Below are positions 9,665-63,888 of a DNA stretch of 64,000 nucleotides, one piece after another. The notes beneath the pieces are model-generated. The model saw only the letters and a list, made by a program, of their open reading frames with translations. It was not told the origin of the DNA and searched no databases. Position 1 is the first letter of the stretch, and the number at the start of each line of letters is the position of its first letter. This DNA is from Clostridia bacterium (lineage in GTDB: Bacteria; Bacillota; Clostridia; TANB77; RGIG9151). Location: the NCBI GenBank assembly GCA_017450465.1, contig JAFSUW010000029.1:41572-105571 (forward strand). The letters run 5' to 3'. A program made the position numbers and the translations under genes.

Positions 9665-9698
9665 ATGTATATCACTTCCAAAAAATAAATTGTTGTAT

Positions 9699-9767
9699 CT
9701 GTAGGGGCGATTATTAATCGCCCGCAATATACTATCATTTGTGATATGGGCGAATAATATTCGCCCA
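9699..9767. repeat. pair of GC-rich hairpins (CTGTAGGGG family)
   Basis: ctgtaggggcgattattaatcgcccg and tgggcgaataatattcgccca. Confidence 0.6.
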
Positions 9768-9844
9768 TACACTTTTGTGCATATTCCAACATACAACCAT
9801 TATTAAGCATTAATCTATCACATTTTGGCAAAAATTGCAAATTA

Positions 9845-11488
9845 CTATATGCTGCTATCTAATATCTCAAGCGTAAAAGGCCTAAATTCACTATTTATTT
9901 TATCTAGTATTTCCTCTTTGCTCTCTGAAATAATAATCTCCTTTGGCGTTTTACTATACAAATATCCACATAAATGATATAAGTAATCCACAGGTGATTT
10001 ATTTATATCACTTCCAAAACTACTTAATATTTTTTCTGCTTTTTCTGCTAATTCATACTCTCCAAACAATCTCGAAAGTTTCATGAAATTCATTATTGCT
10101 ACTGAATTTACCGATGGAATCGCCCCATCGTAAGTCTCTTTTATATTTACAATTAACTGTTCACCTGCTTTGCTATATAAATATAGTCCATTATCATCCC
10201 AAAAATTTTCCAAAAGCTCGTCGTTTAGTTCCTTTGCTTTTACCAAATACTTGTTATTGTATCCTGCTTCATATAGTTCAATTAATCCCCAAATCATATA
10301 AACATAGTCTATAGCATACGCATCGCCAACTATATTACCATTTATATAATACGCCTTTAAGTGTTTCTCATTTAGCGTTTCTAATATAAAATCTGCGCAT
10401 TTCGTCGCTATTTTTATATAATCTTCATTGTTGAAAGTCTTACCTGCATATGCAAAACAAAGAATCGCCATACCATTTAAGTTAGTCGCAATTTTTTTAT
10501 CAATAAATACTTCCTGACTATCTTTATCGTCCTTTTGAATTTCTGAATCTTCTGCCGAATAGAACCCACCTTCAATAGATAGTAATCTCTTTTTTATATA
10601 ATCTAGCGACTCTTCTATTACATCTTTATACTTAATCTTTTTCATAACCTTGTAACACTCTGTAAATGCTAATATCATCAATGCATTAGTATATAGCATT
10701 TTCTCATAGTGAGGGCTTTTCCAATCTTGCGTCGTCGCATACCTATAAAATCCGCCATTTTCTTTATCATATATTTCGCCTTCAGCAATATTGTCTAACG
10801 TCTTTTCTACCATATAAAGTACATATTCTTCTTTATATAGATACCAATACCTAAGCAAGAAAAAAATCTGATGTGCTATGGGGAATTTAGGTGCACCACC
10901 AAAACCGCCATATTTATCATCAAATATGGATTTCATAATCCATATAGCATTAGCTACTGTATCATCCGTTACCTTTTCTAAATCTTTTGGCACATATTCC
11001 ATCTTTTTTACAACTTCATCAGCAGATTCATATATCGCTTTCTTATTTTCTTTCCAATTCTTCAAAATGGCTTTAAGCAGGGTTAAAAAATCTATACTAC
11101 CTTCTTCTTTTTTATCTGGATAATACGTTCCCGCAAAAAACGGTTTCCCCTCTGGCGTTAAAAATATATTAAGGGGCCACCCTGCGTTTTCAGTCATTCT
11201 CACTGCCGCATCCATGTATATTGCATCAATATCTGGTCTTTCTTCTCTATCTACCTTTATTGAAACAAAATTCTCATTCAAGAATTTTGCAATTTCTTCA
11301 TCGCTAAACGCTTCCTTGGCCATCTTATGACAAAAATGGCACGTTGAATAACCTATACTTAAAAATATTGGCTTATCTTCTATAACTGCTTTATTTAGTG
11401 CTTCATTGCCCCATGGATACCAGTTTATTGGATTATCCGCATGCTGAAGCAAATATGGAGAATTTTCGTTAATTAATAAATTAGGCAT
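9845..11488 (-). CDS. thioredoxin-domain protein, YyaL/DUF255 family
   Basis: [40 protein letters not shown]. Start at MPNLLINE with a GAGGTG RBS. Confidence 0.85.
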
Positions 11489-13629: not shown

Positions 13630-13744
13630 TTATCTTCTGTGTCTCCTTTCAGACTGGTCTTTAGTTTAATATACAATAATATAGATGTAAAGTCAAATTA
13701 CGTTGAGTTTGTGAGATTTTGTGTTTTGGCTTAAGTTAAACTAC

Positions 13745-14134
13745 GCAAATTATTGTTTGTCTTTCTCTTTAATAACCACGTGAACTAACCATTACGTTTG
13801 TTAACATTTCTTGCCAAAATAATTGGTGGCCGTTCGCACGATGCATCCTGCATCGATTCTCACTCAAAAAAACATCCAGTTTTTTTGACCACCAAAAACT
13901 ATTTTGGAGAAATGTTACAAACTTCATTTAATCGTTCGCTATGGTTATTAAAGGGATTAAACTAAAATCATAATTTTATATATTTAAACTTTATGTTTGT
14001 CAAAGATTTGATGTTTTGGCAAGGCAAACGAGCGAGAAAACCGGAAGCGTACGAGTTGTACGTTGAGGATTTTCGATGCGAAGTTTAACGTAGCCAAAAC
14101 GCAAATATTTGACAAACTCAGTGATAAACAATAA
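13745..14134. repeat. MITE-like element with nested inverted repeats, bounded by AAATTATTGTTT / AAACAATAATTT
   Basis: Perfect 12-bp terminal inverted repeats. Internal ~70-bp arms (ctttaataaccac... / ...ggttattaaag) pair with each other. A central core is shared with 44950-45085. Confidence 0.55.
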
Positions 14135-14140
14135 TTTACT

Positions 14141-16335: not shown

Positions 16336-16623
16336 TTATTTAAGTTCAATAACTAGCTTTTTCCCTAATGCCATGGCCATAGAGTTTAAGTCATAAATAG
16401 TTGGGCTTACATCTCCTGTCTCTATATCTAACACTGTTGTATCCTCTAAATTGGCCCTTTTAGTTAATTCTTCTTGTGTTATATTTTGTTTATTCCTTTC
16501 CTCTATAAAAAGGTTTATTATTTCTTTTTCATATTGTAGTTTATCCCACTCTTTTTTAAAACCTTCATCCTTTAATTTTTCATTTAAATGCTCATCAAAA
16601 TTCATAGTTTCCCTCCTTATCAT
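16336..16623 (-). CDS. XRE-family HTH antitoxin (HigA-like)
   Basis: 95 aa with an HTH (NITQEELTKRANL). A 4-nt ATGA overlap with the upstream toxin gene indicates translational coupling. Confidence 0.8.
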   Translation of the reverse strand: MIRRETMNFDEHLNEKLKDEGFKKEWDKLQYEKEIINLFIEERNKQNITQEELTKRANLEDTTVLDIETGDVSPTIYDLNSMAMALGKKLVIELK

Positions 16624-17183
16624 TTCTGAAATGATCCTCGTTTAGCCGAGCGCCGTTTTTTATCACTCTTATTTACTTGTGCTTTGGCAGCTTTTAATTC
16701 ACCTTCAACCTTTTTTAGTTCTTCTTTCAATTCACCAAACTCTTCTATTTCAGATTCGAGTTCGTCGTCCTCGTTATCATCAGCACCACTATCATCAATT
16801 TCAACATGTTTAAGAGGACCTAGTTTATTTTTTCTTTTTCTAGTCTCATAATCCGCTTTATATTTTTGTGCCTTACTAAATTCTCCTGGATCCATTTTTT
16901 CTTGCTTTTTTGTATAACCATTCGACAAAATTATAGTATTATCTCCTGCGAAAAAGTAAAATATCCTAAATATATCTGTCCCAAGTTTAACACGTAGCTC
17001 AAATATACCATCTCTAGCTGGGCTTGAATATGGATATCTCAAGTTGTTTCCTTGTTTATTTAACATTTTTAATCTATCCATTACTTTTGCTGCTTTTCTA
17101 TCAGATAATGTGGCTATATAATCTGCCACAGGCATTTTCCCACTGGATGTATGATAATAAACAAGTTCAAACAACTTTTTCAC
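16620..17183 (-). CDS. type II toxin, RelE/ParE superfamily, Gp49/HigB-like, with a ~70-aa C-terminal extension
   Basis: RYPYSSPARDGIFELRVKLGTDIFRIFYFFAGDNTIILSNGYTKKQEKMDPGEF matches the Gp49/DUF891 pattern. The acidic and Lys-rich tail is atypical. Confidence 0.75.
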   Translation of the reverse strand: MKKLFELVYYHTSSGKMPVADYIATLSDRKAAKVMDRLKMLNKQGNNLRYPYSSPARDGIFELRVKLGTDIFRIFYFFAGDNTIILSNGYTKKQEKMDPGEFSKAQKYKADYETRKRKNKLGPLKHVEIDDSGADDNEDDELESEIEEFGELKEELKKVEGELKAAKAQVNKSDKKRRSAKRGSFQK

Positions 17184-17201
17184 CTCTACTTTTACTCTAA
17201 C

Positions 17202-18797
17202 TTATTTTGCTGCTTCTTTATTTTCTACGCTTAATGATGCTGCTTTATTACCCCTTTTTAAGTCTTTATCAGTGCTAAACTCTTGCAAGATTTCATTTAC
17301 ATTTTTGCTAGCCATAGATGTTGTTGGATCTAAGTTATTTTCCCAAACTTTGCCGCCCCTTAAGCAATTTTTATTTATTTTACCATTCACATAAACAACA
17401 ACTTCATGCGTAGGATTATTGTTCGATGGGACCTTACTTAAATCCATACTCTCATAGCATAAACTTATACTGCTATTCGCATAAGATATCATATCATAGC
17501 CATATTGCTGATGAATTACCTCGTTTTGCTTCCCGCCCACATAAAACTTAGTGCTTGTGCTTGCTGGAATTCTTACCTCTTCCATAAGAGTATTTAAGAA
17601 AGCCGTAACATCTATTTCTACTATTTTCCCTATCAGTGGACGTCCATTTAATTTATCTATATGATTTGATATAAACGAAACTTTACGTAATGGGCAAAAT
17701 GAAAATACTTGCTGCCCTAAAGAAATATTATATAGTGTAGCTACTTGAAGACCACTTCCCAAAAATGCTCTATCACCAATCTTTAATGTTTTTTCAACTG
17801 AATCATAATTAAAGCTTTTTAAATTTTTTAATCCTAAACAAGCTTCAGTTCCAATCTCTTTTAATTCTACAGGAAAAATTATGTCTTCAACTTGTGCTGC
17901 CATTTTATATTGTTTTATAGAAAGTTCACCCGGTTTAATTTGTTCTACTTTTTTATTGTATATAACTGCCACTATAATTGCATTTTTATTGCCTATACCA
18001 TTAATAGCATTTACGAATTTTATTTTATATTTAGCATTATTCATAGTATATATTAAAGCCATCCTAGCAGAAGTTTTTAATATAGCTTTTTCATATCTCG
18101 TAGGCAATTTATACTTAACTAGTACGTCAATCACCCTTTTACGATATACGTCTAAATCACTTAATTCTGGTTCTTTTGGGCGTGCACTCTTTCCTCCCAC
18201 GCCACTTCTTATAAATCTACCTAAGAAATTCGTATCTTTTTTAACTTCTTTTTTTTCTTCTTTTTTATGTTCTTTTTCGTGCTTGGCTTCTTCTTTCTTT
18301 TCTAGTGCAGCATCTTCACCTAAATCTAAATTTTCGCCAAGTAAAATGTTCCACATTCTTCCTTGATGCAACACAGCATTTACATTCTTCATATCTACTT
18401 TGCCACTACCATATGCGCCTCTTTTTATTTCTGTTATTAGCATCTGCCTTTTCATATCTTGCTTTAAGTCAGATATTTTTAAGTTTTCTAGCATATCTAT
18501 TAATTCAGCAACTTGGTCGTCTGTTGTAAATTCTGGTATATCTACCTTCTTTAGTGTGCCCTTTTGCTTTATTTGTGAGGCAGTATATAACATTCTTATT
18601 CGCATAATTTGTCTAGAGACATCAATTAACTGCTCTTTATTAAACTGTTCTTCTAGCATATTATAATAATCCTGCACGATTTTTAAAAGTTCATCATCTA
18701 CAGAATCAATATCATATTCCATCGTATTAAGTCTAGTCTTAAATTCCTCAATTTCATTTGGCAATGCATCATTTATTGTATCTGCCATATATAACAC
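17202..18797 (-). CDS. hypothetical protein (531 aa; coiled-coil N-terminus, KE-rich linker)
   Basis: Long ORF separated from the toxin gene by only 18 nt, which suggests an operon. No recognisable motifs. Confidence 0.5.
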   Translation of the reverse strand: MLYMADTINDALPNEIEEFKTRLNTMEYDIDSVDDELLKIVQDYYNMLEEQFNKEQLIDVSRQIMRIRMLYTASQIKQKGTLKKVDIPEFTTDDQVAELIDMLENLKISDLKQDMKRQMLITEIKRGAYGSGKVDMKNVNAVLHQGRMWNILLGENLDLGEDAALEKKEEAKHEKEHKKEEKKEVKKDTNFLGRFIRSGVGGKSARPKEPELSDLDVYRKRVIDVLVKYKLPTRYEKAILKTSARMALIYTMNNAKYKIKFVNAINGIGNKNAIIVAVIYNKKVEQIKPGELSIKQYKMAAQVEDIIFPVELKEIGTEACLGLKNLKSFNYDSVEKTLKIGDRAFLGSGLQVATLYNISLGQQVFSFCPLRKVSFISNHIDKLNGRPLIGKIVEIDVTAFLNTLMEEVRIPASTSTKFYVGGKQNEVIHQQYGYDMISYANSSISLCYESMDLSKVPSNNNPTHEVVVYVNGKINKNCLRGGKVWENNLDPTTSMASKNVNEILQEFSTDKDLKRGNKAASLSVENKEAAK

Positions 18798-18837: not shown

Positions 18838-19014
18838 AGATAAATTATTGTTTATAGGGATGATGTAAATGTGTGTTGGTAAATTATCAAACTGTAGGGG
18901 CGAGTCTCCTGGCTCGCCCGTGTACAATGTTTGCGGGCGGGGGTGGAACCCCGCCCCTACAGAAATTTTAATATTTCATATTAAAATTTCTCCCCTACAA
19001 ACAATAATTTATCT
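18838..19014. mobile_element. MITE-like element (~177 bp) with 22-bp terminal inverted repeats
   Basis: AGATAAATTATTGTTTATAGGG ... CCCCTACAAACAATAATTTATCT. Inside are a CTGTAGGGGCG...CGCCCCTACAG double hairpin and an AT palindrome. Confidence 0.6.
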
Positions 19015-34533: not shown

Positions 34534-34610
34534 TGGCGTGCCTGAGACGATTCGAACGTCCGGCCAACGGCTTAGAAGGCCGTTGCTCTATCCTGCTGAG
34601 CTACAGGCAC
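34534..34610 (-). tRNA. tRNA-Arg (anticodon TCT), CCA encoded
   Basis: Reverse complement reads GTGCCTGTAGCTCAGCAGGATAGAGCAACGGCCTTCTAAGCCGTTGGCCGGACGTTCGAATCGTCTCAGGCACGCCA. Cloverleaf with the TPsiC motif GTTCGAATC. Anticodon loop is CTTCTAA. Confidence 0.9.
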
Positions 34611-34656: not shown

Positions 34657-34945
34657 GTACTTTTTAGTTTATTTGAGAAATTGTTGCTTAGTTGAGTAAT
34701 TTCGGCGAAAGAAGGGACGGGGGTAAATGACACAAACAGGTTCAGTTAGCCCCGTCCCACCTCCCGCATTTCCGCCTTTGGCGGATAATGCGAGTGGCGA
34801 ACACACCTCGGAAATCACTCGCCATAAGTTCGAATAGCAAAATCAAAGATTTTGATTCTCACTTATGTTCGCCGCTACAAGTTTGCGAATAACTCTAACT
34901 TTAAATTCTCTCATGTAAACAATAATTTATCTTTCCTCCTATTAT

Positions 34946-35525: not shown

Positions 35526-37412
35526 TTAATCTGTAAGACTTCCAAATAATTCATCAAATTTCGCTTCAAGTTGCTTTTGAATATCTAAGTCTTCTAAATC
35601 ATCCTTTTCAAGACCGTTTTCAACATTTACCGAACCAACTGTTCCTTTGCCTATTTCATAAGGATTAATTATCCTAAATTCTTTTCTATGATTTAAGCTT
35701 GGGTCATTATGGCTCATTTTATACATTTGACGCTCTTTGTCTTTTGGATGCATACTTACATCGTATTTTTTAGCTTTTATAGGACGCATACCTTTAACCA
35801 TTACGATACTCGTATCAAGTGGCAAACGTTTTAACTCATCAATTGTCATAAGTACTCTTCCCATTGACTGATCAGATATGCTCTGTGACATTTGTCCTGA
35901 ACTGGTTCCAAATATACCGCCTAACTGGCCACTTACTGAATTTTGTTTCTTGGTTATTGTTGCCTCTCCTAAGCTTTTTGATATATACTCACAAGTTTTT
36001 ACTGCTTGGCTACCCAAAAATAGATGCGTATCGCAGTTTGCCATGATGTTTTCGTAAATATCTTTATACATATCCATTAATTGGTCAATACTCTGTAAAA
36101 CTATGCTAATGTTTATATTTCTACTTCTACTTGTACTTAATTTTTGGTTAAAATCAGGAATTTGTCCTGTATTTGCGAACTCATCTAGGAGGAAGAATAC
36201 TGGTATATCAAGCCGTCCTCCATTTTGGTCTGCCATGAAATATAATCTTTGAAGCACCTGCCCAAAAAACATGGTAGGCAAGAAGTTAAATGCACTATGG
36301 CTATCTGGGGTTATAACGAATGTTGCCATTTTCTTTTGCCCCATAGCATCTATATCTATTGAACTACTACCTGTTATAGCAGATATTTCCGGTGTATCAA
36401 AAACGTTTAGCCTTGTAGCAAGTCCTACTAAAACTCCGGCCCTTGTCTTATCTACAGCTAATCTAAACGTTTCATAACTCTTTCTTGCCATACATTCGAA
36501 AGGAAGACGCATAAAGATGTCATCCATCCAGTCAAAATCCTGTCCTGCTCTTACCATAGCAAGGCAGCTTGCAAGCGATTGTTCTTCCTTTGGTGCTTCT
36601 TGTAATAAATAATATATACATGAGTTAAGTAAAGCACGCTCTGCTTGTGGCCAGAATGGGTCTTCGTTTGTTGAACCCTTACTTGTATTTTTTATTAATG
36701 CATCACTTACGATATCTACATCGAGAGTTCCACCAATATGATGTAGAGGGTTATATGAATCACTACAGCTTGGATTTACTAAGTTTATGCAACGAACTTC
36801 ATAGCCATTTTCTTTTAAGAAACCTGCTGCAGTATCAAAGTTTTCACCTTTTGGGTCGGTTACGATATATGAGCCAAGCATTTGAAGCATATTAGGCATA
36901 ATGTAACCTCTTGATTTCCTAGAACCAGCACCACCTATGATTAATACATTTTTATTTATAAATTTATTATCTACTGTTAAATAATTTTTTTGTGCAAGTA
37001 TTATACCTGTATTTGGATTTAATATTTCGTATTGGTCACCATTTGCCCATCCGCTTGAACCATGTTCAATATTTTCATACTCGCCGGTAAAGAACCTAAG
37101 TTTTATTTCATAAGCACCAAAAATAATTAAACAAAAAATTGTAATTGGTGTTACACTACTTAAAAAACCGTGTTGAGCATCTGAGTTATTAATATATTTA
37201 GTAAACGTAAGAGGATTTAAGTTTTTAAAAAAATTAGGCGCAAAAAGAACAGCATCTACAGACGAAATGCTGCTATCTTTTTCTTTTTTATACTGTTCCC
37301 ATTGTGCTTTGGTGGCACCATAAGCACCACCTAAGAACGTTAGGAGTAATAAAAAAACTATTCCATAAAATATATATCTTTGTTTTCTTTTTTTAAGAAT
37401 ATTTAATCCCAT
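35526..37412 (-). CDS. TraG/VirD4-family type IV secretion coupling protein homolog with a degenerate Walker A
   Basis: N-terminal transmembrane segments. GGAGSRKSRGYIMPNML lines up with the VirD4 Walker A/PNLL region but lacks the canonical GxxxxGK[ST]. The FFLLDEFANTGQIP Walker B region is typical of TraG/VirD4. Confidence 0.7.
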   Translation of the reverse strand: MGLNILKKRKQRYIFYGIVFLLLLTFLGGAYGATKAQWEQYKKEKDSSISSVDAVLFAPNFFKNLNPLTFTKYINNSDAQHGFLSSVTPITIFCLIIFGAYEIKLRFFTGEYENIEHGSSGWANGDQYEILNPNTGIILAQKNYLTVDNKFINKNVLIIGGAGSRKSRGYIMPNMLQMLGSYIVTDPKGENFDTAAGFLKENGYEVRCINLVNPSCSDSYNPLHHIGGTLDVDIVSDALIKNTSKGSTNEDPFWPQAERALLNSCIYYLLQEAPKEEQSLASCLAMVRAGQDFDWMDDIFMRLPFECMARKSYETFRLAVDKTRAGVLVGLATRLNVFDTPEISAITGSSSIDIDAMGQKKMATFVITPDSHSAFNFLPTMFFGQVLQRLYFMADQNGGRLDIPVFFLLDEFANTGQIPDFNQKLSTSRSRNINISIVLQSIDQLMDMYKDIYENIMANCDTHLFLGSQAVKTCEYISKSLGEATITKKQNSVSGQLGGIFGTSSGQMSQSISDQSMGRVLMTIDELKRLPLDTSIVMVKGMRPIKAKKYDVSMHPKDKERQMYKMSHNDPSLNHRKEFRIINPYEIGKGTVGSVNVENGLEKDDLEDLDIQKQLEAKFDELFGSLTD

Positions 37413-44470: not shown

Positions 44471-44494
44471 TTTTAGTCATCCTTTCTTATCTAC

Positions 44495-44520
44495 GGACGG
44501 GCAAGGACACCCGCCCCTAC
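44495..44520. repeat. GC-rich hairpin (CCGCCCCTACA family, inverted orientation)
   Basis: ctacggacgggcaaggacacccgcccctacaaa. Confidence 0.5.
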
Positions 44521-44808: not shown

Positions 44809-44887
44809 AATTTTTTCCTCCATTTTCTGCTATAATATTACCATTATTTTGACCATTTTACAACACGTGTGATATAATTAAATAAAC

Positions 44888-45189
44888 AAATTATTGTTTT
44901 TAGAGTTACAAATAATAAAAAACAAATCGCTTCATTCTAACACTTCGTTTGTTGCATTTTATACCAAAACAAATGATGGTCGTTCGTATTCGGCATCCAT
45001 ACCTCATACTCACTCAAAAAAACATCCGGTTTTTTTGACCATCATAAGCCGTTTTGGAAAAATGCTAACAAACTACGTGATGAATTCGCTTTATTTGTTT
45101 TTTATTATTAAATTGTAACTACGCAAGATTACTAAATGTAGAGTTTGATTATGGCAAGCCATAATCAAACTCCCCAACAAACAATAATT
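44888..45189. mobile_element. MITE-like element bounded by AAATTATTGTTT / AAACAATAATTT, with a core shared with 13813-13930
   Basis: Perfect 12-bp terminal inverted repeats. Internal arms gtttgttgcatttt...tgatggtcgttcg and cgaattcatc...gtttgttagcatttt are inverted copies. Contains the core ctcactcaaaaaaacatccggtttttttgacca. Confidence 0.55.
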
Positions 45190-45210
45190 TATCTTAATAG
45201 GAGAAACAAA

Positions 45211-51423: not shown

Positions 51424-52584
51424 TTATAGTCCTTGTAATAATTGTAATACTTGATTTGGTTGTTGATTTGCTTGTGCAAGCATTGCTGTAGCTGTTTGGT
51501 TAAGTATACTATCTTTTGTATATGTAACCATTTCAGCTGCCATATCAACATCACGAATACGTGATTCAGCAGCTGTTAAGTTTTCTTCACTCGCAGCTAA
51601 GGCATCTAAGGTATATTCCAACCTGTTCTGATAAGCACCAAGATCGCCTCTTGCGCTTGTTAATATATTTAACGCATTATCTATTGCATCTAGAGTATCA
51701 CATGCTTGATCTACGTCATCTATACTTAAATATGTAAGTCCAAGTGCAGCTGAACGCAAGTCTGGCATTTCTATTGTAAGAGCTCTATCTATTGAATTTG
51801 CACCAATTTGAAGGTTTGTCTTTCCTCCAGGTGATGTTTGTATCTTAAGTCCACTAATACTTGCAAGTGTCATATCCTTAAAGTTAAACTTAATACCAAC
51901 ATTTGAGCCATCTGCACCTTCAAACCTCATAAATCCAGAATATTTTGCATCTGTAATTGGGCCTGTTGTACTTGTTGCTGTATGTGTAGCTCCTTGTATT
52001 GAATAAGTAACTGTTACAACACCATCGCTATCTACACTAAAAGTATATTCTGTTTCATTCTCTGCGCCTGCAACATCTAATGTTTTTATTCCTTCAATTA
52101 AATCATATCCACCATCGGCATTTGCTTGATAAACAGTTGAATTAGCCTTGTCAGCTGACATTCCAAGTGTACCTTTTAATAAGTACGTACCATTAAATGA
52201 AGCTGTTTCTGCTATTCTATCAACCTCATCCCTAAGTTGTACTATCTCGGCTGTTATTGCTTCTTTTTCACCTGTTGATAGTATACCATTCATAGATTGA
52301 ACTGAAAGTTCTCTCATTCTTTGGAAAATATCACTAACTTGTTGTAATGCACCTTCTGCTGTTTGAATCATTGATATACCATCTTGTGCATTAAGCTGGG
52401 CCTTTTCCAAACCTCTTATCTGTGCTCTCATCTTTTCACTAATAGCAAGACCTGCAGCATCATCGCCTGCACTGTTAATTCTTAAGCCTGATGATAATTT
52501 CTCAAGTGAGCTTACTGTTCCTCTCTGGTTTACTACCAATTGATTTTGGGCATTAATTGCCGAAATGTTGTGATTAATCCTCAT
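51424..52584 (-). CDS. flagellin (386 aa, divergent paralog)
   Basis: MRINHNISAINAQNQL N-terminus and ...QPNQVLQLLQGL C-terminus. Confidence 0.95.
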   Translation of the reverse strand: MRINHNISAINAQNQLVVNQRGTVSSLEKLSSGLRINSAGDDAAGLAISEKMRAQIRGLEKAQLNAQDGISMIQTAEGALQQVSDIFQRMRELSVQSMNGILSTGEKEAITAEIVQLRDEVDRIAETASFNGTYLLKGTLGMSADKANSTVYQANADGGYDLIEGIKTLDVAGAENETEYTFSVDSDGVVTVTYSIQGATHTATSTTGPITDAKYSGFMRFEGADGSNVGIKFNFKDMTLASISGLKIQTSPGGKTNLQIGANSIDRALTIEMPDLRSAALGLTYLSIDDVDQACDTLDAIDNALNILTSARGDLGAYQNRLEYTLDALAASEENLTAAESRIRDVDMAAEMVTYTKDSILNQTATAMLAQANQQPNQVLQLLQGL

Positions 52585-52678
52585 GATTAATTCCTCCTTA
52601 TTTTTCTACCGTCTTGTCATTCCATGATCTTAAAGCTTTAAACATCCATAATAATGTCTTAAATCCTTTTCAAAAACA

Positions 52679-52705
52679 TTATCGTATTTTAGCGAAAATA
52701 CTTTA
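52679..52705 (-). promoter_or_regulatory. candidate sigma-D promoter for flagellin 51424..52584
   Basis: On the minus strand, TAAA-N15-TACGATAA. Confidence 0.4.
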
Positions 52706-52838
52706 TAGTTTTTTTAAACTTTTTTTGGTTTTTTAAAAAAAATATAGTGCATTTCCGCATAAACAGGGGGTTTTAATATTATTAATTTTTTTATTAAAAT
52801 ATTAACCCGCCTGTTTATACTTAAAAAGCACCATATAA

Positions 52839-53948
52839 TTATTGCAATAATGATAAAATTGTTTGAGGCTGCTGATTTGCTTGAGCAAGCATTGCCATAG
52901 CTGATTGGTTAAGTATACTATTCTTTGTATACGATACCATCTCACTAGCCATGTCTACATCACGAATACGTGATTCTGCATTGGTCAAGTTTTCATGTGT
53001 AGCCGTCAAGTTCTCAACTGCATACTCCATTCGATTCTGCATTGCTCCTAATACGGAACGTTGGGCCGATACTTTATCTATTGCATAATCGATTGCAATT
53101 AGAGTATTGTTGGCTTCTTCATTAGTTGCAATTGAAATAGTCATCTTTTCTGAGTTTGCTGATAAACCTGTAGAGCTCATATCATCAATACCAATAAATA
53201 ATAAATCTTCTTCATAAGTATTGGCACCAATTTTGAATACTGCTCTTTTGCCATCATCAGATTCAGTTTGTGTTGTAATAGTTGCGCCATTTAATTCTGA
53301 TGCAGCAATTGGAGTTTTACCAAGATTTATTTCAATTCCTGCGGATGCAAATCTGACAACTCCGCTTATTGTCTGACCTATAGTAAGTTCTTCTTTACCA
53401 TCTGTTCCCCAGGTGATTTTTGCCTTACCATCTGTCACCTCTATCGAATACGTTGTACCTTCTTCGGCATTTGATACACTAACTGAATACTTCTCATCTA
53501 CTGTGGTTGAATCCAGTTGTGTTGCAAGAGAACCATCTAGTATTTTCTTTGAGTTAAACGTACTAGATGTTGCAATTCTGTCTATCTCATCTCGAAGTGT
53601 TGCAAGTTCTGTCGAAACAGAAACTCGATCATCTTCTGTTAATACACCTGTATTTTGTGATTTAACTACTAGTTCTCTCATTCTCTGCAATATATCAGTA
53701 GTTTGTTGAAGAGCACCTTCTGCCGTTTGTATCATTGAGATACCATCTTGGGCATTGTTTTTAGCTTGTGCTAAACCTCTAATTTGTGCTCTCATCTTTT
53801 CACTGATTGCAAGTCCCGATGCGTCATCTGCCGCACTGTTAATTCTTAAACCTGACGATAGTTTCTTTATAGAACCCTCAACTCTTGATTGGTTCCCTGA
53901 TAATTTGTTTTGGGCATTAATAGCCATTATATTTGTATTTATTCTCAT
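52839..53948 (-). CDS. flagellin (369 aa)
   Basis: MRINTNIMAINAQNKL...[16 protein letters not shown]. Confidence 0.95.
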   Translation of the reverse strand: MRINTNIMAINAQNKLSGNQSRVEGSIKKLSSGLRINSAADDASGLAISEKMRAQIRGLAQAKNNAQDGISMIQTAEGALQQTTDILQRMRELVVKSQNTGVLTEDDRVSVSTELATLRDEIDRIATSSTFNSKKILDGSLATQLDSTTVDEKYSVSVSNAEEGTTYSIEVTDGKAKITWGTDGKEELTIGQTISGVVRFASAGIEINLGKTPIAASELNGATITTQTESDDGKRAVFKIGANTYEEDLLFIGIDDMSSTGLSANSEKMTISIATNEEANNTLIAIDYAIDKVSAQRSVLGAMQNRMEYAVENLTATHENLTNAESRIRDVDMASEMVSYTKNSILNQSAMAMLAQANQQPQTILSLLQ

Positions 53949-54115
53949 TTTACATTCCTCCTTGAATTTTTAAGAAAACCCTTCCGTGGGCTTCCTAGAG
54001 AGCTTTTTACCTCGGCCCTGAGTTTAACTCTCTAAAACCTTCATCGTCATTTTTTTTCATTACTTAACATTTATTTAAAAAATTTTTTAGAGAACAAGTT
54101 TATATTTAAAAATAA

Positions 54116-54143
54116 AAAGGAGGCCTAAGCCTCCTTTTTATTT
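54116..54143. terminator. terminator downstream of flagellin 54148..55254
   Basis: aaaaaggaggcctaagcctccttttt. Confidence 0.65.
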
Positions 54144-54147
54144 TTTA

Positions 54148-55254
54148 TTAACCAAGTAATGATAAGATTTGTTGTGGTTGTTGATTTGCTTGTGCAAGCA
54201 TTGCCATAGCTGATTGATTTAAGATGCTATTCTTTGTGTAAGTTACCATTTCAGCAGCCATGTCTACATCACGGATACGTGATTCAGCAGCTGTTAAGTT
54301 TTCACTTGTTGTTGATAAGTTTTCTACTGCGTATTCCATTCTGTTTTGAACAGCACCTAAACTTGCTCTTTGGCTTGATACTTTGTTGATTGCATTATCA
54401 AGATTTTTTAATGCTGCATCTGCATTTGCTGTTGTACTTATATCAATAGTTACACCTAATGCTGCTGATCTCATATCACCAATACCAACAAATAATTGGT
54501 CTTCGTCATATGTGTTAGCACCAATTTTAAATGCAGCTTTTTCTTTTCCACCTGCAGCAGATGCTGCTTTTGTTACTATATTTTTGCCGTTTATTGATGT
54601 TGCTGCAACATCAGTTGTACCAACATCAATTTCTATTCCAGCATTTGCAAATTTAATTACACCATTTATTGTTTGTGGTACAGCAACTTCTTCTGTTTTT
54701 GCAGTACCATCAGTCCAACTAAGCGTAATCTTACTTGATGTAGCTGCTATAGAATATGTAATTCCTTCTTTTGCGTTTGCTACATTTACTTTGCAATTAC
54801 TGCCAAGTGTTGTAGTGTTTAATTGTGTACCCATATCACCATTTAATAATTTCTTTGTATTAAATGTTGTTGAGTTTGCAATTCTATCTACTTCATCTTT
54901 TAATGCTGTTAATTCTGTTGTGATTGATGTTTGGTCATTTGATGTTAAAACACCAGTGTTTTGTGCCTTTACAACTAGTTCTCTCATTCTTTGAAGTATA
55001 TCTGTTGTTTGTTGTAATGCACCTTCTGCTGTTTGTAACATAGAAATACCATCTTGAGCATTACTTTGTGCTTGATTTAAGCCACGAATCTGTGATCTCA
55101 TCTTTTCACTTATAGCAAGGCCAGATGCATCATCTGCAGCTCCGTTAATTCTTAAACCTGATGATAATTTTTTGATTGATCCTTCTACTTTACCTTGATT
55201 ACCTGTTAATTTGTTTTGGGCATTTAATGCCATAATATTGGTATTAATTCTCAT
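54148..55254 (-). CDS. flagellin (368 aa)
   Basis: Conserved flagellin N- and C-termini. Confidence 0.95.
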   Translation of the reverse strand: MRINTNIMALNAQNKLTGNQGKVEGSIKKLSSGLRINGAADDASGLAISEKMRSQIRGLNQAQSNAQDGISMLQTAEGALQQTTDILQRMRELVVKAQNTGVLTSNDQTSITTELTALKDEVDRIANSTTFNTKKLLNGDMGTQLNTTTLGSNCKVNVANAKEGITYSIAATSSKITLSWTDGTAKTEEVAVPQTINGVIKFANAGIEIDVGTTDVAATSINGKNIVTKAASAAGGKEKAAFKIGANTYDEDQLFVGIGDMRSAALGVTIDISTTANADAALKNLDNAINKVSSQRASLGAVQNRMEYAVENLSTTSENLTAAESRIRDVDMAAEMVTYTKNSILNQSAMAMLAQANQQPQQILSLLG

Positions 55255-55311
55255 AATAATTCCTCCTTGAATTTATTAATTTCTTAACCTCCATGTAACC
55301 TTATCTCTTAA

Positions 55312-56136
55312 TTAGCTTAAGAGTGATAAAATTTGTTGTGGTTGTTGATTAGCTTGTGCAAGCATTGCCATAGCTGATTGATTTAAGATACTATTCTTTG
55401 TGTAGTTAACCATTTCAGCAGCCATATCTACGTCACGAATACGTGATTCAGCAGCTGTTAGGTTTTCCTTAGTTGTTGATAAGTTCTCAATTGCATATTC
55501 CATTCTATTTTGTACAGCACCAAGACTTGCTCTTTGGCTTGAAACTGTATTTATGGCAGTATCAATATTGGTTAAAGCAGCATTTGTGTTTGTTGCATTA
55601 CTAATATTGATTGTTACGCCTAAATCAGATGATTTCATAGAAGCAATATTTACTGTAATTGAGTCAACTGTATCTGTATTTGCACCTATTTTAAATGTTG
55701 CACCATTTGTTGCTAAACTACCATCTAACAATTTTTTGGTATTAAAAGTTGTTGAATTAGCGATTCTATCAATTTCACTGTTTAGTGCTGTTAATTCTGT
55801 CGTTATTGATGTTTTATCGTTATCTGTTAAAACACCAGAGTTTTGTGCTTTTACAACTAGTTCTCTCATTCTTTGAAGAATGTCTGTTGTTTGTTGTAAT
55901 GCACCTTCTGCTGTTTGGATCATTGATATACCATCTTGGGCATTGCTTTGTGCTTGACCAAGACCACGAATCTGTGCTCTCATCTTTTCACTTATAGCAA
56001 GACCAGATGCATCGTCAGATGCACTGTTAATTCTTAAACCAGATGATAATTTCTTAATTGATCCTTCAACTTTACCTTGGTTACCGGTTAATTTGTTTTG
56101 AGCATTTAATGCCATAATATTGGTATTTATTCTCAT
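55312..56136 (-). CDS. flagellin (274 aa)
   Basis: Conserved flagellin N- and C-termini with a short central domain. Confidence 0.95.
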   Translation of the reverse strand: MRINTNIMALNAQNKLTGNQGKVEGSIKKLSSGLRINSASDDASGLAISEKMRAQIRGLGQAQSNAQDGISMIQTAEGALQQTTDILQRMRELVVKAQNSGVLTDNDKTSITTELTALNSEIDRIANSTTFNTKKLLDGSLATNGATFKIGANTDTVDSITVNIASMKSSDLGVTINISNATNTNAALTNIDTAINTVSSQRASLGAVQNRMEYAIENLSTTKENLTAAESRIRDVDMAAEMVNYTKNSILNQSAMAMLAQANQQPQQILSLLS

Positions 56137-56198
56137 TTTACATTCCTCCTTGAACTATAAACATCTTCCCTGACTTATTAAAGTCATGAGCCTATATT

Positions 56199-57023
56199 CT
56201 AACCTAATAGTGAAAGTATTTGTTCAGGTTGTTTATTTGATTGTGCAAGCATTGCCATAGCAGTTTGATTTAATATACTATTCTTTGTATAGTTAACCAT
56301 TTCAGCAGCCATATCTACGTCACGAATACGTGATTCAGCAGCTGTTAAGTTTTCTTGTGTTGTAGATATGTTTTCAATAGCATATTCCATCCTGTTTTGG
56401 ACAGCACCAAGATTTGCTCTTTGGCTTGAAACTGTATTAATAGCAGCATCAAGTTTTGTTAGAGCTTCATTAGTCTTAGCGGCAGTCGAAATATCAGTAG
56501 ATATATTAAGTGCTGATGAAGTCATCGCATTAATATTTACTGTTATTGAATCAACCGCATCTGTGTTTGCACCAATTTTAAATGTTGCACCAGTACTTGC
56601 TAAATCACCGTTTAGCAACTTTTTGGTGTTAAATGTTGTTGAATTAGCGATTCTATCAACTTCACTGTTTAGAGCTGTAAGCTCTGTAGTGATTGATGTT
56701 TTATCGCTATCCGTAAGAACACCTGAATTTTGTGCTTTAACTACTAGTTCTCTCATCCTTTGTAAAATATCAGTCGTTTGCTGAAGTGCACCCTCTGCTG
56801 TTTGAATCATTGATATACCATCTTGGGCATTACTTCCAGCTTGGGCAAGTCCTCTAATCTGAGCTCTCATCTTTTCACTTATAGCAAGACCAGATGCATC
56901 ATCAGATGCAGTATTGATCCTTAAGCCAGATGATAATTTCTTGATAGAAGACTCAACGTGACCATTATTTTTACTAAGCATATTCCTAGCATTTAAGGCC
57001 ATAACATTGGTATTAATCCTCAT
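56199..57023 (-). CDS. flagellin (274 aa from MRINTN)
   Basis: Start moved two codons in, to MRINTNVMALNARNML, which has an RBS. Confidence 0.9.
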   Translation of the reverse strand: MRINTNVMALNARNMLSKNNGHVESSIKKLSSGLRINTASDDASGLAISEKMRAQIRGLAQAGSNAQDGISMIQTAEGALQQTTDILQRMRELVVKAQNSGVLTDSDKTSITTELTALNSEVDRIANSTTFNTKKLLNGDLASTGATFKIGANTDAVDSITVNINAMTSSALNISTDISTAAKTNEALTKLDAAINTVSSQRANLGAVQNRMEYAIENISTTQENLTAAESRIRDVDMAAEMVNYTKNSILNQTAMAMLAQSNKQPEQILSLLG

Positions 57024-57064
57024 ATACATTCACCCTCTTCCTTGAAGGATTATGTATGAGGCTC

Positions 57065-57112
57065 AATATTCTTTTGGTTTAATTTTTAATGTGGCTCACA
57101 ATATTGAGCCCC
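57065..57112. terminator. hairpin terminator between flagellin genes
   Basis: gaggctcaatattc...gaatattgagcc inverted repeat. Confidence 0.5.
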
Positions 57113-57126
57113 ATACGACCTACTTA

Positions 57127-57960
57127 TTACCTAAGTAATGATAAAATTGCTTGTGGTTGTTGATTAGCTTGTGCAAGCATTGCCATAGCTGATTGATTTA
57201 AGATACTATTCTTTGTGTAACTTACCATTTCGCTAGCCATATCTACATCACGAATACGTGATTCAGCAGCTGTTAAGTTTTCACTTGTTGTTGATAAGTT
57301 TTCTACTGCATATTCCATTCTGTTTTGAACAGCACCAAGTTTTGCTCTTTGACTTGAAACTGTATTAATAGCAGCATCAAGTTTTGTTAAAGCTGTGCTT
57401 GCTCCACCAGCTGTTGTAATATCTAACGCATTAATTTGAAGACTTGTTGCATCCATAGCACCTATTGTAACTTTAATTGAGTCAACTGCGTCTGTGTTTG
57501 CACCAATTTTAAATACTGCTGCATCAGCAGCGTCTTCTAAGTCACCATTTAATAATTTCTTGGTGTTAAATGTTGTTGAAGAAGCAATTCTATCAACTTC
57601 ATTTTTTAATGCTGTTAACTCTGTTGTAATAGATGATTGGTCTTGGCTTGTTAACACACCAGTATTTTGTGCTTTTACAACTAGTTCTCTCATTCTTTGA
57701 AGAATGTCTGTTGTTTGTTGTAATGCACCTTCTGCTGTTTGAATCATTGATATACCATCTTGAGCATTACTTTGTGCTTGATTTAAGCCACGGATCTGTG
57801 ATCTCATCTTTTCACTTATAGCGAGGCCTGATGCATCATCAGCAGCTCCATTAATTCTTAAACCTGATGATAATTTCTTGATTGATCCTTCAACTTTACC
57901 TTGGTTACCTGTTAACTTATTTTGGGCATTTAATGCCATAATGTTTGTATTAATTCTCAT
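57127..57960 (-). CDS. flagellin (277 aa)
   Basis: Conserved flagellin termini. Confidence 0.95.
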   Translation of the reverse strand: MRINTNIMALNAQNKLTGNQGKVEGSIKKLSSGLRINGAADDASGLAISEKMRSQIRGLNQAQSNAQDGISMIQTAEGALQQTTDILQRMRELVVKAQNTGVLTSQDQSSITTELTALKNEVDRIASSTTFNTKKLLNGDLEDAADAAVFKIGANTDAVDSIKVTIGAMDATSLQINALDITTAGGASTALTKLDAAINTVSSQRAKLGAVQNRMEYAVENLSTTSENLTAAESRIRDVDMASEMVSYTKNSILNQSAMAMLAQANQQPQAILSLLR

Positions 57961-58016
57961 AATAATTCCTCCTTGAATTTTTTTTAATAATTTTTCTTCC
58001 TTGATCTAACAAATTA

Positions 58017-58457
58017 CTATTCTAGCAATTTTAGTATCTGTTCGGGTTTTTTATTTGCTTGGGCTAATATCGCACTCTTTGAATGGTTAATCATACGACT
58101 CTTGGTCTCATTTACCACTTCTTCAGCCATATTAACATCACGAATACGAGATTTAGATGCATTGATGTTTTCAGCAACAATATCATCTTCTCCTTTTATA
58201 GCTACTTCCTTAGATTCGAATAAACCTTCCATATCAGCTAATACTTCATTAGCTTTTGAGTATACTACTTCTGGTTCTTGGCGTTTATCGATTTCCCTCA
58301 TTTGTTCATGCATTTTCTCGTTAACACGAGGATCTACATTTTTCTTGTTTTCGCTTATTTTAAGTCCAGAATTTCTCTCTTCACGAGATTCATCTGGTTT
58401 TCTTGACGCTATGTTTTGAAGACTAAGCGCAGCTACATTATCTATTCTCATATTCAA
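58017..58457 (-). CDS. mini-flagellin-like protein (146 aa; flagellin D0 N- and C-terminal segments only, charged linker)
   Basis: MNMRIDNVAALSLQNIA... at the N-terminus and ...SRIRDVNMAEEVVNETKSRMINHSKSAILAQANKKPEQILKLLE at the C-terminus. Confidence 0.7.
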   Translation of the reverse strand: MNMRIDNVAALSLQNIASRKPDESREERNSGLKISENKKNVDPRVNEKMHEQMREIDKRQEPEVVYSKANEVLADMEGLFESKEVAIKGEDDIVAENINASKSRIRDVNMAEEVVNETKSRMINHSKSAILAQANKKPEQILKLLE

Positions 58458-58504
58458 TCCCCTCCTCCCTGAAACAATAAATTCCTTTTATTTTTTTTAC
58501 TCAT

Positions 58505-58530
58505 GTAGTAGGCGAGTAAATCGCCCCTAC
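58505..58530. repeat. GC-rich hairpin (GTAGTAGGCG...CGCCCCTACA family)
   Basis: gtagtaggcgagtaaatcgcccctacaa. Confidence 0.5.
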
Positions 58531-58532
58531 AA

Positions 58533-59357
58533 TTAGCTTAAGAGTGATAAAATTTGTTGTGGTTGTTGATTAGCTTGAGCAAGCATTGCCATAGCTGATT
58601 GATTTAAGATGCTATTCTTTGTGTATGTAACCATCTCAGCAGCCATATCTACGTCACGAATACGTGATTCAGCAGCTGTTAAGTTTTCACTTGTTGTTGA
58701 TAAGTTCTCGATAGCATATTCCATTCTGTTTTGTACTGCACCAAGTTTTGCTCTTTGACTTGATACTGTATTGATTGCTGTGTCAAGGTTTGTTAAAGCA
58801 TCATCTGCAGCTGTCTTTATATTGATTGTAATACCTAAAGCAGCAGATCTCATGTCACCAATTGTGATTGAGATTGAGTCAACTGCGTCTGTATTAGCAC
58901 CAATTTTAAATGTTGCTGCATTTGCTGCTAACTTCAAATCACCATTTAATAGTTTCTTTGTGTTGAATGTTGTAGAACTTGCGATTCTATCAACTTCATC
59001 TTTTAATGCTGTTAATTCTGTTACTATTGAGTCTTGGTCATTTGTTGTTAAAACACCAGTATTTTGTGCTTTTACAACTAGTTCTCTCATTCTTTGAAGA
59101 ATGTCTGTTGTTTGTTGTAATGCACCTTCTGCTGTTTGGATCATTGATATACCATCTTGAGCATTACTTTGTGCTTGGTTAAGTCCACGAATCTGTGATC
59201 TCATCTTTTCGCTTATAGCGAGGCCTGATGCATCGTCAGAAGCTCCGTTAATTCTTAAACCTGATGATAATTTCTTGATTGATCCTTCTACTTTACCTTG
59301 ATTACCTGTTAATTTGTTTTGGGCATTTAATGCCATAATGTTTGTGTTAATTCTCAT
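58533..59357 (-). CDS. flagellin (274 aa)
   Basis: Conserved flagellin termini. Confidence 0.95.
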   Translation of the reverse strand: MRINTNIMALNAQNKLTGNQGKVEGSIKKLSSGLRINGASDDASGLAISEKMRSQIRGLNQAQSNAQDGISMIQTAEGALQQTTDILQRMRELVVKAQNTGVLTTNDQDSIVTELTALKDEVDRIASSTTFNTKKLLNGDLKLAANAATFKIGANTDAVDSISITIGDMRSAALGITINIKTAADDALTNLDTAINTVSSQRAKLGAVQNRMEYAIENLSTTSENLTAAESRIRDVDMAAEMVTYTKNSILNQSAMAMLAQANQQPQQILSLLS

Positions 59358-59751
59358 AATTATTCCTCCTTGAATATTTTTTTCTTCTTATAATAAGAAG
59401 AGTTCCTTAAGAAGATAAATCCTTTTACCTTCTCTTTACTAATTTACTTAGTACCATCCTCCTTTAGGTGAATGATTTTCTTCCGTGAATTTAGGTGTCA
59501 TTAAAATATTTTTGACTTATTATGTCCCGACCAATTCTTTTGGAAGTGACTAATCTACTTCGCCGTATCATAAATTAATCATTTATGTAATTTTTACAAC
59601 GCTAAAGTTAAAGCCGTATAACCTTATTATTGTAAAAAAATTACCAAAACTTTTTAAACCTTAAATAGAACAGTAAATTTAGTTTGTAGTTCTAGATATT
59701 AGTTATAAGAGTAGCCCCCTCACTAATATCTAGAAATACATTTACTGCTTA

Positions 59752-60576
59752 CTATCTAAGTAATGACAAAATTTGTTGTGGTTGTTGATTAGCTTGTGCT
59801 AACATTGCCATAGCTGATTGATTTAATATGCTATTCTTTGTGTAACTTACCATCTCAGCAGCCATATCTACGTCACGAATACGTGATTCAGCAGCTGTTA
59901 AGTTTTCACTTGTTGTTGATAAGTTTTCAATTGCATATTCCATTCTATTTTGTACTGCACCAAGTTTAGCTCTTTGGCTTGATACTGTGTTTATTGCATT
60001 ATCTAAGTTTGTTAAAGCTGTACTTGCTGCACTTGCAGTTGTAATATCAGTTGTTACTCCTAAAGCTGTTGATGTCATTGTACCTATTGTTACTGTTATT
60101 GAGTCAACTGTATCTGTATTTGCACCAATCTTAAATGTTGCACCATTTGTTTTTAAATCACCATTTAATAATTTCTTTGTATTAAAGGTTGTTGAAGAAG
60201 CAATTCTATCAACTTCATCTTTTAATGCTGTTAACTCAGTTGTGATTGATGATTGGTCTTGTGCTGTTAAAACACCAGTATTTTGTGCTTTTACAACTAG
60301 TTCTCTCATTCTTTGAAGAATGTCAGTTGTTTGTTGTAATGCACCTTCTGCTGTTTGTATCATTGAGATACCATCTTGTGCGTTACTTTGTGCTTGGTTA
60401 AGTCCACGAATCTGTGATCTCATCTTTTCACTGATTGCAAGGCCTGATGCATCATCAGCAGCTCCATTAATTCTTAAACCTGATGATAATTTTTTGATTG
60501 ATCCTTCAACTTTTCCTTGGTTTCCTGTTAATTTGTTTTGTGCGTTTAATGCCATAATGTTTGTGTTAATTCTCAT
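59752..60576 (-). CDS. flagellin (274 aa)
   Basis: Conserved flagellin termini. Confidence 0.95.
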   Translation of the reverse strand: MRINTNIMALNAQNKLTGNQGKVEGSIKKLSSGLRINGAADDASGLAISEKMRSQIRGLNQAQSNAQDGISMIQTAEGALQQTTDILQRMRELVVKAQNTGVLTAQDQSSITTELTALKDEVDRIASSTTFNTKKLLNGDLKTNGATFKIGANTDTVDSITVTIGTMTSTALGVTTDITTASAASTALTNLDNAINTVSSQRAKLGAVQNRMEYAIENLSTTSENLTAAESRIRDVDMAAEMVSYTKNSILNQSAMAMLAQANQQPQQILSLLR

Positions 60577-60626
60577 AATACATTCCTCCTTGAATTTTTT
60601 TGTATAAAGTAAATCCCTTTACTTTT

Positions 60627-60762
60627 ACTTATTATGTAATTTTTATGACGCTATACTTTTAAATCCAGTACACCCATAAAATTATTACGTTTTTACTTAT
60701 TATGTAACCTTTGGGGTGTTATACTTTTAAATCTAGTACGCCCATAAAATTATTACCTTTTT
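60627..60762. repeat. 2 x 68-bp tandem direct repeat in a flagellin intergenic region
   Basis: acttattatgtaatttttatgacgctatacttttaaatccagtacacccataaaattattacgttttt, then a ~85%-identical second copy. Confidence 0.7.
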
Positions 60763-60794
60763 TTAAATTCAACAAATAAATCTCTTAAATTTTT

Positions 60795-60829
60795 TTGTAG
60801 TAGGCGGACTTATAGTCCGCCACTACATT
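60795..60829. repeat. GC-rich hairpin (TGTAGTAGGCGG family)
   Basis: tgtagtaggcggacttatagtccgccactacatta. Confidence 0.55.
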
Positions 60830-60876
60830 AACGGCTATTTCAATTACTTTTTGTGGGTAAAGAAATCCCTACATTA

Positions 60877-61701: not shown

Positions 61702-61810
61702 AATAAATTCCTCCTTGAATTTTTTGTTTTTACATCCTTGTGTTTCTATGTAATTTTTATAGCATCATATACTTAGCCGTTAGTATAAATACTATAAAAT
61801 AATTACCAAC

Positions 61811-61838
61811 ACTTGTAGGCGAAGTTTCCTTCGCCTTA
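61811..61838. repeat. GC-rich hairpin (TGTAGGCG family)
   Basis: ttgtaggcgaagtttccttcgccttaag. Confidence 0.5.
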
Positions 61839-61848
61839 AGTCTTGTTA

Positions 61849-62682: not shown

Positions 62683-62892
62683 TTTACATTCCTCCTTGAA
62701 TTTTTTGATAGGAAAAGCACATCCTTATACTTTTCTTTATCTTTTGTAGACTTTTTACTATATTTCTTTGCCGTGTCAAAATATAGTGCTTCTTTATAGT
62801 ATCTAAAGTCCTAAAATACTATAAAGCTAAGTAATATTTACTTAGTGAAAACAATTAAAACATTTTAATTGCTTTCATTAAGTAAATGTTAC

Positions 62893-62928
62893 TGTAGGGG
62901 GCGATATTAGTCGCCCTCTACAAAACAT
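62893..62928. repeat. GC-rich hairpin (CTGTAGGGGGCG...CGCCCTCTACA)
   Basis: actgtagggggcgatattagtcgccctctacaaaac. Confidence 0.6.
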
Positions 62929-62936
62929 TTAGGCAA

Positions 62937-63770: not shown

Positions 63771-63888
63771 AATAAATTCCTCCTTGAATTTTTAATTTTT
63801 TAGTACTTCCATGTACTTTTTTTCTATTGTTTTATAATTTTTTATACGACTAATAAACAGTTAGAATTTTTAATCATTCTACTGTGAA

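Follow-up and report, generated by a model that had tools for sequence, protein, structure and literature searches.

The 64,000-nt stretch of DNA analysed here (the window), from the MAG of an uncultured Clostridia bacterium of ruminant-gut metagenomes, contains structured intergenic elements bounded by inverted copies of a 12-mer, AAATTATTGTTT. The best explanation for them, to which we give about an even chance of being correct, is a family of mosaic palindromic repeats, non-coding and species-specific, that were inserted into intergenic spacers and moved by an enzyme encoded elsewhere. The unit would comprise an inverted 12-mer frame with exchangeable hairpin modules between its ends, these modules being TwoAYGGAY in elements A and C, GTAG-headed REP/REPIN-like GC hairpins in B, E and F, and other GC hairpins in D. 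The family has six members, of which A, B, C, D and F lie within the window and E lies beyond its start. The features are as follows.

13747–14137, minus strand: element A; in minus-strand reading the 5′ 12-mer is at 14126–14137 and the 3′ 12-mer at 13747–13758
13785–13933, minus strand: TwoAYGGAY motif (RF01731) predicted in A; Rfam 44.3 bits against a gathering score of 43
13704–13746, minus strand: third copy of arm X, outside the 3′ 12-mer of A; complementary to 14077–14120 (45 nt, 84%)
18838–19014, minus strand: element B; 22-nt inverted arms containing the 12-mers at 18842–18853 and 18999–19010
18894–18960, no strand assigned: REPIN-like doublet in B; two inverted GTAG hairpins with a 15-nt spacer
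44888–45190, minus strand: element C; 12-mers at 44888–44899 and 45179–45190
44936–45083, minus strand: TwoAYGGAY motif predicted in C; Rfam 48.4 bits against a gathering score of 43
45141–45172, minus strand: 5′-terminal hairpin of C (14 bp), GAGTTTGATTATGG/CCATAATCAAACTC, six nt past the 12-mer
34678–34928, minus strand: element D; perfect 5′ 12-mer at 34917–34928, 3′ variant AAGCAACAATTT at 34678–34689
L167:13877–14022, minus strand by window reading: element E, on the same-organism contig L167, which runs past the window start
9687–9819, minus strand: element F, degenerate; 5′ end GATAGATTAATGCTT, 3′ end ATACAACAATTT
44491–44520, minus strand: stand-alone GTAG-headed REP-like hairpin in the space between yhbY and uppP
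58505–58530, minus strand: stand-alone REP-like hairpin with a GTAG head, past a flagellin gene; a 1-mismatch 12-mer lies at 58472–58483
62894–62921, no strand assigned: stand-alone REP-like hairpin with GTAG and CTAC on its flanks, between flagellin genes

The initial annotation had proposed a repeat family with common inverted termini, and the termini prove to be real and far above chance frequency. Seven exact 12-mers occur in the window (13747+, 14126−, 18842+, 18999−, 34917−, 44888+ and 45179−) against 0.19 expected from dinucleotide shuffles (shuffle maximum 3), and convergent pairs 80–450 nt apart number 13 against 0.9 expected from dinucleotide shuffles of the window. Every exact copy in the window is intergenic, as had been stated, and is paired convergently around structured DNA, the inverted 12-mers enclosing intergenic segments of 133–391 bp. 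Exact copies number eight in 71.8 kb of the source species and two in 68.8 kb of relatives, and of the latter one is coding and the other solo. The sequence of the 12-mer is not itself palindromic, and it is invariant although the neighbouring bases differ between elements.

On the minus strand of the window, all six units are laid out as 5′-AAATTATTGTTT ... AAACAATAATTT-3′, and their ends can be described as (AGAT)AAATTATTGTTT plus an inverted copy that is either perfect or carries a shared two-nucleotide variant. The inverted 12-mer is perfect in A, B and C, which agrees with the perfect 12-bp core already noted at the ends of the two larger elements, A and C; likewise, the near-perfect 22-bp terminal inverted repeats (TIRs) of B match at 21 of 22 positions (18838–18859 versus 18993–19014). 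D and E each combine a perfect 12-mer with a 2-mismatch partner. The perfect 12-mer of E overlaps the lon stop codon, and its 3′ end, AAGCAACAATTT, is the same two-substitution variant as that of D; this end variant (TAAGCAACAATTT, a derived 3′ end) is thus common to two loci about 36 kb apart. What had been read as a lone fifth right end at 34915–34930 is instead the 5′ 12-mer of D, since the diverged partner AAATTGTTGCTT at 34678–34689 makes D a whole element. The earlier count of four or five copies in the window described a genuine family, to which F is to be added in the window and E outside it.

Significant similarity between interiors is confined to two pairs, A–C (the TwoAYGGAY core) and B–E (a 28-nt REP unit), and no full-length homology was found between any two of the six elements in hand (72 kb of genome). 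Because no two elements are near-identical over their full length, recent transposition lacks direct support. The A–C pair corresponds to the internal core previously reported for the larger elements: A 13785–13923 and C 44937–45074 align over 141 nt at 78% identity, including the 33-mer that had been quoted from it. While the sharing of this core by A and C is borne out, its attribution to a miniature transposable element is not, as covariance-model scores place it, read on the minus strand, in a known Rfam family, TwoAYGGAY (RF01731), and a relative (L171) possesses the same module without 12-mers. Both copies exceed the Rfam gathering score of 43, albeit with a dependence on search conditions, as a scan of the whole window under default filters missed them (13789–13929 and 44940–45080) and they were found when short stretches were submitted. 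With a custom covariance model built from the A and C copies and two copies of a relative, A scored 147 bits on the minus strand versus 23.6 on the plus strand and C scored 151.7 bits; these were the only matches of that model in the window. Paired changes are frequent, with 14 of 38 predicted base pairs staying paired through substitutions on both sides. All four loops of A and C contain GGAU, one of them as an exact AUGGAU, and the P1 stem is long. No credible Rfam match was obtained in B, D or the remainder of the window.

The original description of TwoAYGGAY presented it as a probable RNA without a known function, occurring in gut Clostridiales and gamma-proteobacteria and often possessing a very long P1 stem (Weinberg et al. 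2010, PMC2864571); later work put it forward as a small RNA that binds CsrA, i.e. a CsrA sponge (PMC4333381). The core of A and C resembles the known family in its score, its two hairpins with GGAU loops, its long P1 stem and its host, a gut Clostridia as for most known members. It is unlike an ordinary representative in being the cargo of just two of six elements, and the 12-mers sit 30–190 nt outside the motif. In the relative L171, three TwoAYGGAY copies share 84–98% identity, none of them has 12-mers, and one lies in the SpoIID–CNNM spacer, the site of A, in the opposite orientation. Runs of the heptamers ATTATTC/ACTATTC accompany the L171 copies (9855–9917, 14098–14134, 17230–17370 and 2221–2405). 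Psychromonas ingrahamii, a member of another phylum, possesses at least five copies with homologous flanks in the Weinberg alignment. The multi-copy occurrence of TwoAYGGAY in A and C, in L171 and in Psychromonas points to a repeat module of several lineages, framed by 12-mers specifically in the source lineage. We also observed that two human-gut loci (BABG01026739 and BABG01000690; TwoAYGGAY.sto of PMC2864571) contain UUAAACAAUAAU, which resembles the 3′ 12-mer, about 100 nt downstream of the motif; these loci are mutually related and hence do not constitute independent evidence.

The second type of module is a GTAG-headed, GC-rich hairpin with the pattern (C/T)TGTAG-GGGCG(A/G)...CGCCC, which is found in B (twice), E and F, at three stand-alone sites in the window and in relatives L170 and L177. 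In B the two hairpins form an inverted doublet with a 15-nt spacer, composed of a plus-strand half, GTAG+GGGCGAGTCTCCTGGCTCGCCC (18894–18919), and a minus-strand half, GTAG+GGGCGGGGTTCCACCCCCGCCC (18935–18960). F has a similar doublet, with two GGGCGA...TCGCCC hairpins headed by GTAT and GTAG; within each doublet, the two palindromes are unlike each other. By published definitions (PMC3686654), a REP consists of a palindrome preceded by a GT(A/G)G tetranucleotide, and a REPIN is an inverted REP doublet; judged by sequence, the GTAG hairpins match the former and the B doublet matches the latter. The interior of B, earlier described as highly structured, is indeed so, and is a REP/REPIN-like doublet. 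The presence of the GTAG hairpin in L170 and L177 indicates a clade-wide hairpin type, unlike the 12-mer. Group 1 RAYTs have been reported from Clostridia (PMC5581495), and no Y1 transposase or RAYT gene was found in the 72 kb of sequence examined. Separately, the Logan contig L005 ends exactly at the foot of the GGGCGAG hairpin of B (18898–18919), which suggests a loop variant or a further copy of that REP unit in the sample. D also contains GC-rich hairpins, of a type other than the GTAG-headed one.

Comparison with the nearest available relatives, L170 (CNNM protein 81% identical) and L171 (72% identical), provided an opportunity to examine orthologous sites lacking the elements; these comparisons are between species, with the A and F sites evaluated against L170 and the B site against L171. 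The SpoIID–CNNM spacer that holds A measures 88 nt in L170 versus 511 nt in the window, with the CNNM promoter region conserved and no A sequence. The Trx–RsmB spacer that holds F measures 82 nt versus 180 nt, and an ordinary intrinsic terminator takes the place of F. At both compact sites the flanking promoter and stop-codon sequences are conserved. In L171, the rplL terminator leads directly to the convergent 366-aa gene, without B and without the LRR/Gp49/HTH block found in the window. The 12-mer is absent as a conserved feature from the orthologous promoters of relatives. The presence/absence differences that would be anticipated for a mobile family are thus observed between species at all three sites, and support the interpretation of the elements as lineage-specific insertions. 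At the A site, the DNA absent from L170 runs about 47 nt past the 3′ 12-mer and includes the arm X stretch at 13704–13746, of which a shorter copy lies at 13995–14020. Here the two 12-mers alternate with the arms of a longer inverted repeat, 14077–14120 versus 13704–13747. The interleaving and the longer gap in L170 indicate that the 12-mers are not always the ends of the inserted DNA, and A looks like a nested or mosaic product as opposed to one clean insertion.

In contigs of the same strain from other samples, assembly breakpoints coincide with the outer edges of the 12-mers. L014 stops 2 nt past the distal 12-mer of A, L162 (a k=31 Logan contig) opens with a 30-mer ending at the same base as the end of L014, and L165 and L166 open with a 30-mer ending at the last base of a 12-mer of C; each of these four contigs starts or ends at the very base where a de Bruijn graph would be predicted to branch, just outside the 12-mer. 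Such branching implies that, in those samples, the interior plus the 12-mer is joined to more than one outer flank, the cause of which could be further near-identical copies or strain-level rearrangement at the 12-mer. In addition, L007, from the same strain in another sample, is identical through rplL and the interior of B and continues into unrelated DNA right after the distal 12-mer. This alternative flank is not the reverse complement of the other flank of B, so the junction is not a simple inversion. The junction could be a structural variant, or a chimera via a second B-like copy; a search for such a copy through the DeoB fragment of L007 retrieved only distant fragments. Beyond rplL and B, L007 has at 640–1043 a terminator and two genes, one for a 50-aa membrane protein and one DeoB-like.

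The polarity is identical for all six elements. Five start 0–54 nt past the stop codon of a minus-strand upstream gene, the exception being C, which occupies the divergent spacer between yhbY and rluA and has no minus-strand gene upstream. Each element ends short of the following gene, and a promoter-like site usually separates the two (partly judged by eye). Every element is predicted to fold as a single long hairpin with the 12-mers as its closing stem, with folding z-scores for the six of –4.8 to –13.6 over both strands. Plus- and minus-strand folding energies are similar in every element but C, which folds better on the minus strand by 19 kcal/mol and contains eight G-U pairs there versus none on the plus strand; in the 22-bp stem of B, a minus-strand G-U pair corresponds to a plus-strand A-C mismatch. 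A search by eye and by scan for promoters in A and C able to drive TwoAYGGAY gave only weak candidates without the –7 T. A near-consensus plus-strand promoter (44849–44878, TTGACC-18-TATAAT with extended TG) is directed into C towards rluA; in a plus-strand transcript, C would be a leader of rluA, antisense to the TwoAYGGAY motif. Between B and the convergent 366-aa gene (16336–18797) are genes for a BspA-like LRR protein and a Gp49/HTH toxin–antitoxin pair, with GCCGATAA, a SigD –10-like sequence, ahead of the LRR gene. The lack of this block in L171 suggests that it was inserted, abutting the distal 12-mer of B.

The preferred reading of a mosaic repeat family would bring these observations together as follows. 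An enzyme encoded elsewhere may recognise the invariant termini and/or the GTAG hairpins, and move or copy the units; once inserted, the units may ride read-through or leader transcripts as large stem-loops, with two of them delivering TwoAYGGAY RNA. Given the lack of target duplications, the strict strand polarity and the REP-like hairpins, a strand-specific enzyme of the HUH/Y1 type (RAYT, IS200-like) or a site-specific recombinase would be more likely than a DDE transposase. By analogy, the family appears closest to BIME/REPIN- and BOX-type repeats, and less close to DDE-type miniature elements. The BIME and REP–REPIN repeats of Enterobacteria and Pseudomonas, mobilised by the Y1 enzyme RAYT, are likewise intergenic, located past gene ends, non-coding, assembled as mosaics of hairpin modules and lineage-specific, and they share the GT(A/G)G head plus palindrome, the inverted doublet seen in B and the lack of target duplication. 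They differ from the present elements in that the AT-rich 12–16-mer outer ends lie outside the REP definition, the two REPs of B have different palindromes, no RAYT gene occurs in 72 kb and the repeats belong to a Clostridia MAG. In Streptococcus pneumoniae, BOX elements (boxA-boxB(n)-boxC) are intergenic and co-transcribed with neighbouring genes, with pairing terminal modules, a variable modular interior and no known transposase. The analogy to BOX would reside in conserved, pairable terminal modules around a variable modular interior; there is no sequence similarity, and the modules here are unrelated to one another and include a small-RNA motif, whereas BOX repeats the single boxB. Counting against a mobile family are the lack of an enzyme in 72 kb and of further paired copies in the GTDB and JGI scans. 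The perfectly conserved 12-mer would be compatible, too, with a function for the host, in protein binding or at the RNA level.

Searches for a mobilising enzyme and for further copies bear on several alternatives. The initial annotation had stated that no transposase is present, and indeed none occurs among the window ORFs; extension to 72 kb (the window plus L167) also gave no transposase, recombinase or invertase gene. An exact scan of GTDB genomes with AGATAAATTATTGTTTRTWGGG returned two matches and no paired copies: one match is a solo 22-mer identical to the end of B, between recA and recX of a rabbit-gut Clostridia MAG, and the other is probably due to chance. In JGI metagenomes, the pattern AGATAAATTATTGTTTN6GAG gave 22 matches, none with a partner (≤1 mismatch) at an element-like distance and chance-like overall; a viral sequence scan with the 16-mer gave single chance matches only, and plasmid BLAST searches with B and C gave nothing relevant.

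The interpretation originally offered was that of miniature inverted-repeat elements (MITEs) in the classical sense, i.e. deletion derivatives of a DDE-type insertion sequence (IS), mobilised by cut-and-paste through transposase binding to 12–22-bp TIRs. Much of the description on which it was founded stands, in that a small, non-coding, intergenic repeat family does exist, with common inverted termini, empty orthologous sites in relatives and contig breaks at its outer edges. Like Correia/NEMIS and RUP elements, its members have short TIRs, measure 130–400 bp, fold into long hairpins and differ in presence between lineages. Unlike those, they have neither TA nor any other consistent target-site duplication (none at offsets 0–6 in any of the six elements), so that the expectation of such duplications failed; their interiors are heterogeneous, being unrelated save for the pairs A–C and B–E; the single polarity of all six would be unexpected for DDE-type TIR elements; and no matching IS with AGATAAATTATTGTTT ends occurs in 72 kb or in the pattern scans. 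We therefore consider a classical MITE family unlikely.

A host RNA function is another explanation that we hold to be improbable. Here, the 12-mers would form the closing helix of transcribed modules, acting as 3′-UTR stabilisers, terminators or RNase III stems that free TwoAYGGAY or other RNAs. The co-orientation of the elements with flanking genes and the start of five of six just past an upstream stop codon are consistent with this function, as are the strand-dependent pairs of the B stem, the better minus-strand fold of C and the position of F in place of the L170 intrinsic terminator. However, a helix maintained for pairing alone should covary, and the 12-mer is invariant; four of the six elements have no folding strand preference, and relatives do without the elements at the same sites. 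Moreover, the arrival of one 12-mer at many loci would be left unexplained.

Rather less probable, in our estimation, is a dedicated strand-specific enzyme (HUH/Y1 or a site-specific recombinase) for which the 12-mers serve as recognition or crossover sites, and which moves small structured cassettes of non-coding DNA or RNA, namely TwoAYGGAY small-RNA genes and REP doublets, between intergenic slots by gene ends. If this were true, the elements would represent a cassette system for non-coding RNAs, and TwoAYGGAY RNA would above all be what a mobile element carries or has as its core.

Quite unlikely, too, are invertons, in which a master recombinase would flip the segments between inverted 12-mers and thereby switch neighbouring genes or an enclosed small RNA. 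Known recombinases of this kind include Mpi in Bacteroides fragilis and RecV in Clostridioides difficile. Such a system would account for identical short inverted repeats around 133–391-bp intergenic segments, for the location of B upstream of a BspA-like LRR surface protein and for the breaking of contigs at the repeats. Against it, a single orientation was seen in every contig spanning the interiors of A, B and C (up to eight loci per element, several samples), as judged from assembled consensus sequence, which low-frequency flipping would escape. A and C also agree in module order and polarity, as do B, E and F; the alternative flank in L007 is not that predicted for inversion of B; there is no invertase in 72 kb; and two of the partner ends have two mismatches.

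Finally, it is very unlikely that the 12-mers are binding sites of a host transcription factor or nucleoid protein that loops or insulates intergenic DNA. Perfect retention of the 12-mer next to variable bases, and the solo 22-mer identical to the end of B between recA and recX of another Clostridia MAG, are compatible with such sites. However, the site lacks palindromic symmetry, its inverted pairs flank inserted DNA at very different distances from each other, and relatives do not retain it at their orthologous promoters. Readings of the 12-mer as a Fur box or an IHF-like site were dropped on sequence inspection, and integron attC sites were rejected, as inspection revealed no GTTRRRY core at the ends and the elements are scattered among core genes.

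The mosaic repeat family carries consequences for TwoAYGGAY, an orphan RNA family without an established function, which forms a module of lineage-specific multi-copy insertions both in the source organism and in a relative. As TwoAYGGAY acts as a repeat, functional studies must separate an RNA role from repeat behaviour. REP/REPIN-like GTAG hairpins are also indicated for a clade of uncultured gut Clostridia, a group from which few descriptions of such repeats exist. In practical terms, the elements fragment metagenome assemblies and mark points of rearrangement, and the LRR/toxin–antitoxin block adjoins B.

Other features of the neighbourhood were observed. Downstream of flaG, fliD, fliS and flgN, the window contains at least 12 tandem flagellin paralogues (51424–64000), most of about 274–277 aa and three of about 370–390 aa, with 60–96% nucleotide identity. 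Near a tRNA-Arg gene (34534–34610) lie a gene for a TraG/VirD4-type coupling protein and two small ORFs (35526–37412); the same two small ORFs and an adjacent partial ORF occur in the same order in L177. Just outside the window, pgk and tpiA are separated by an inserted nucleotidyltransferase/HEPN pair (L167, 17987–18686).
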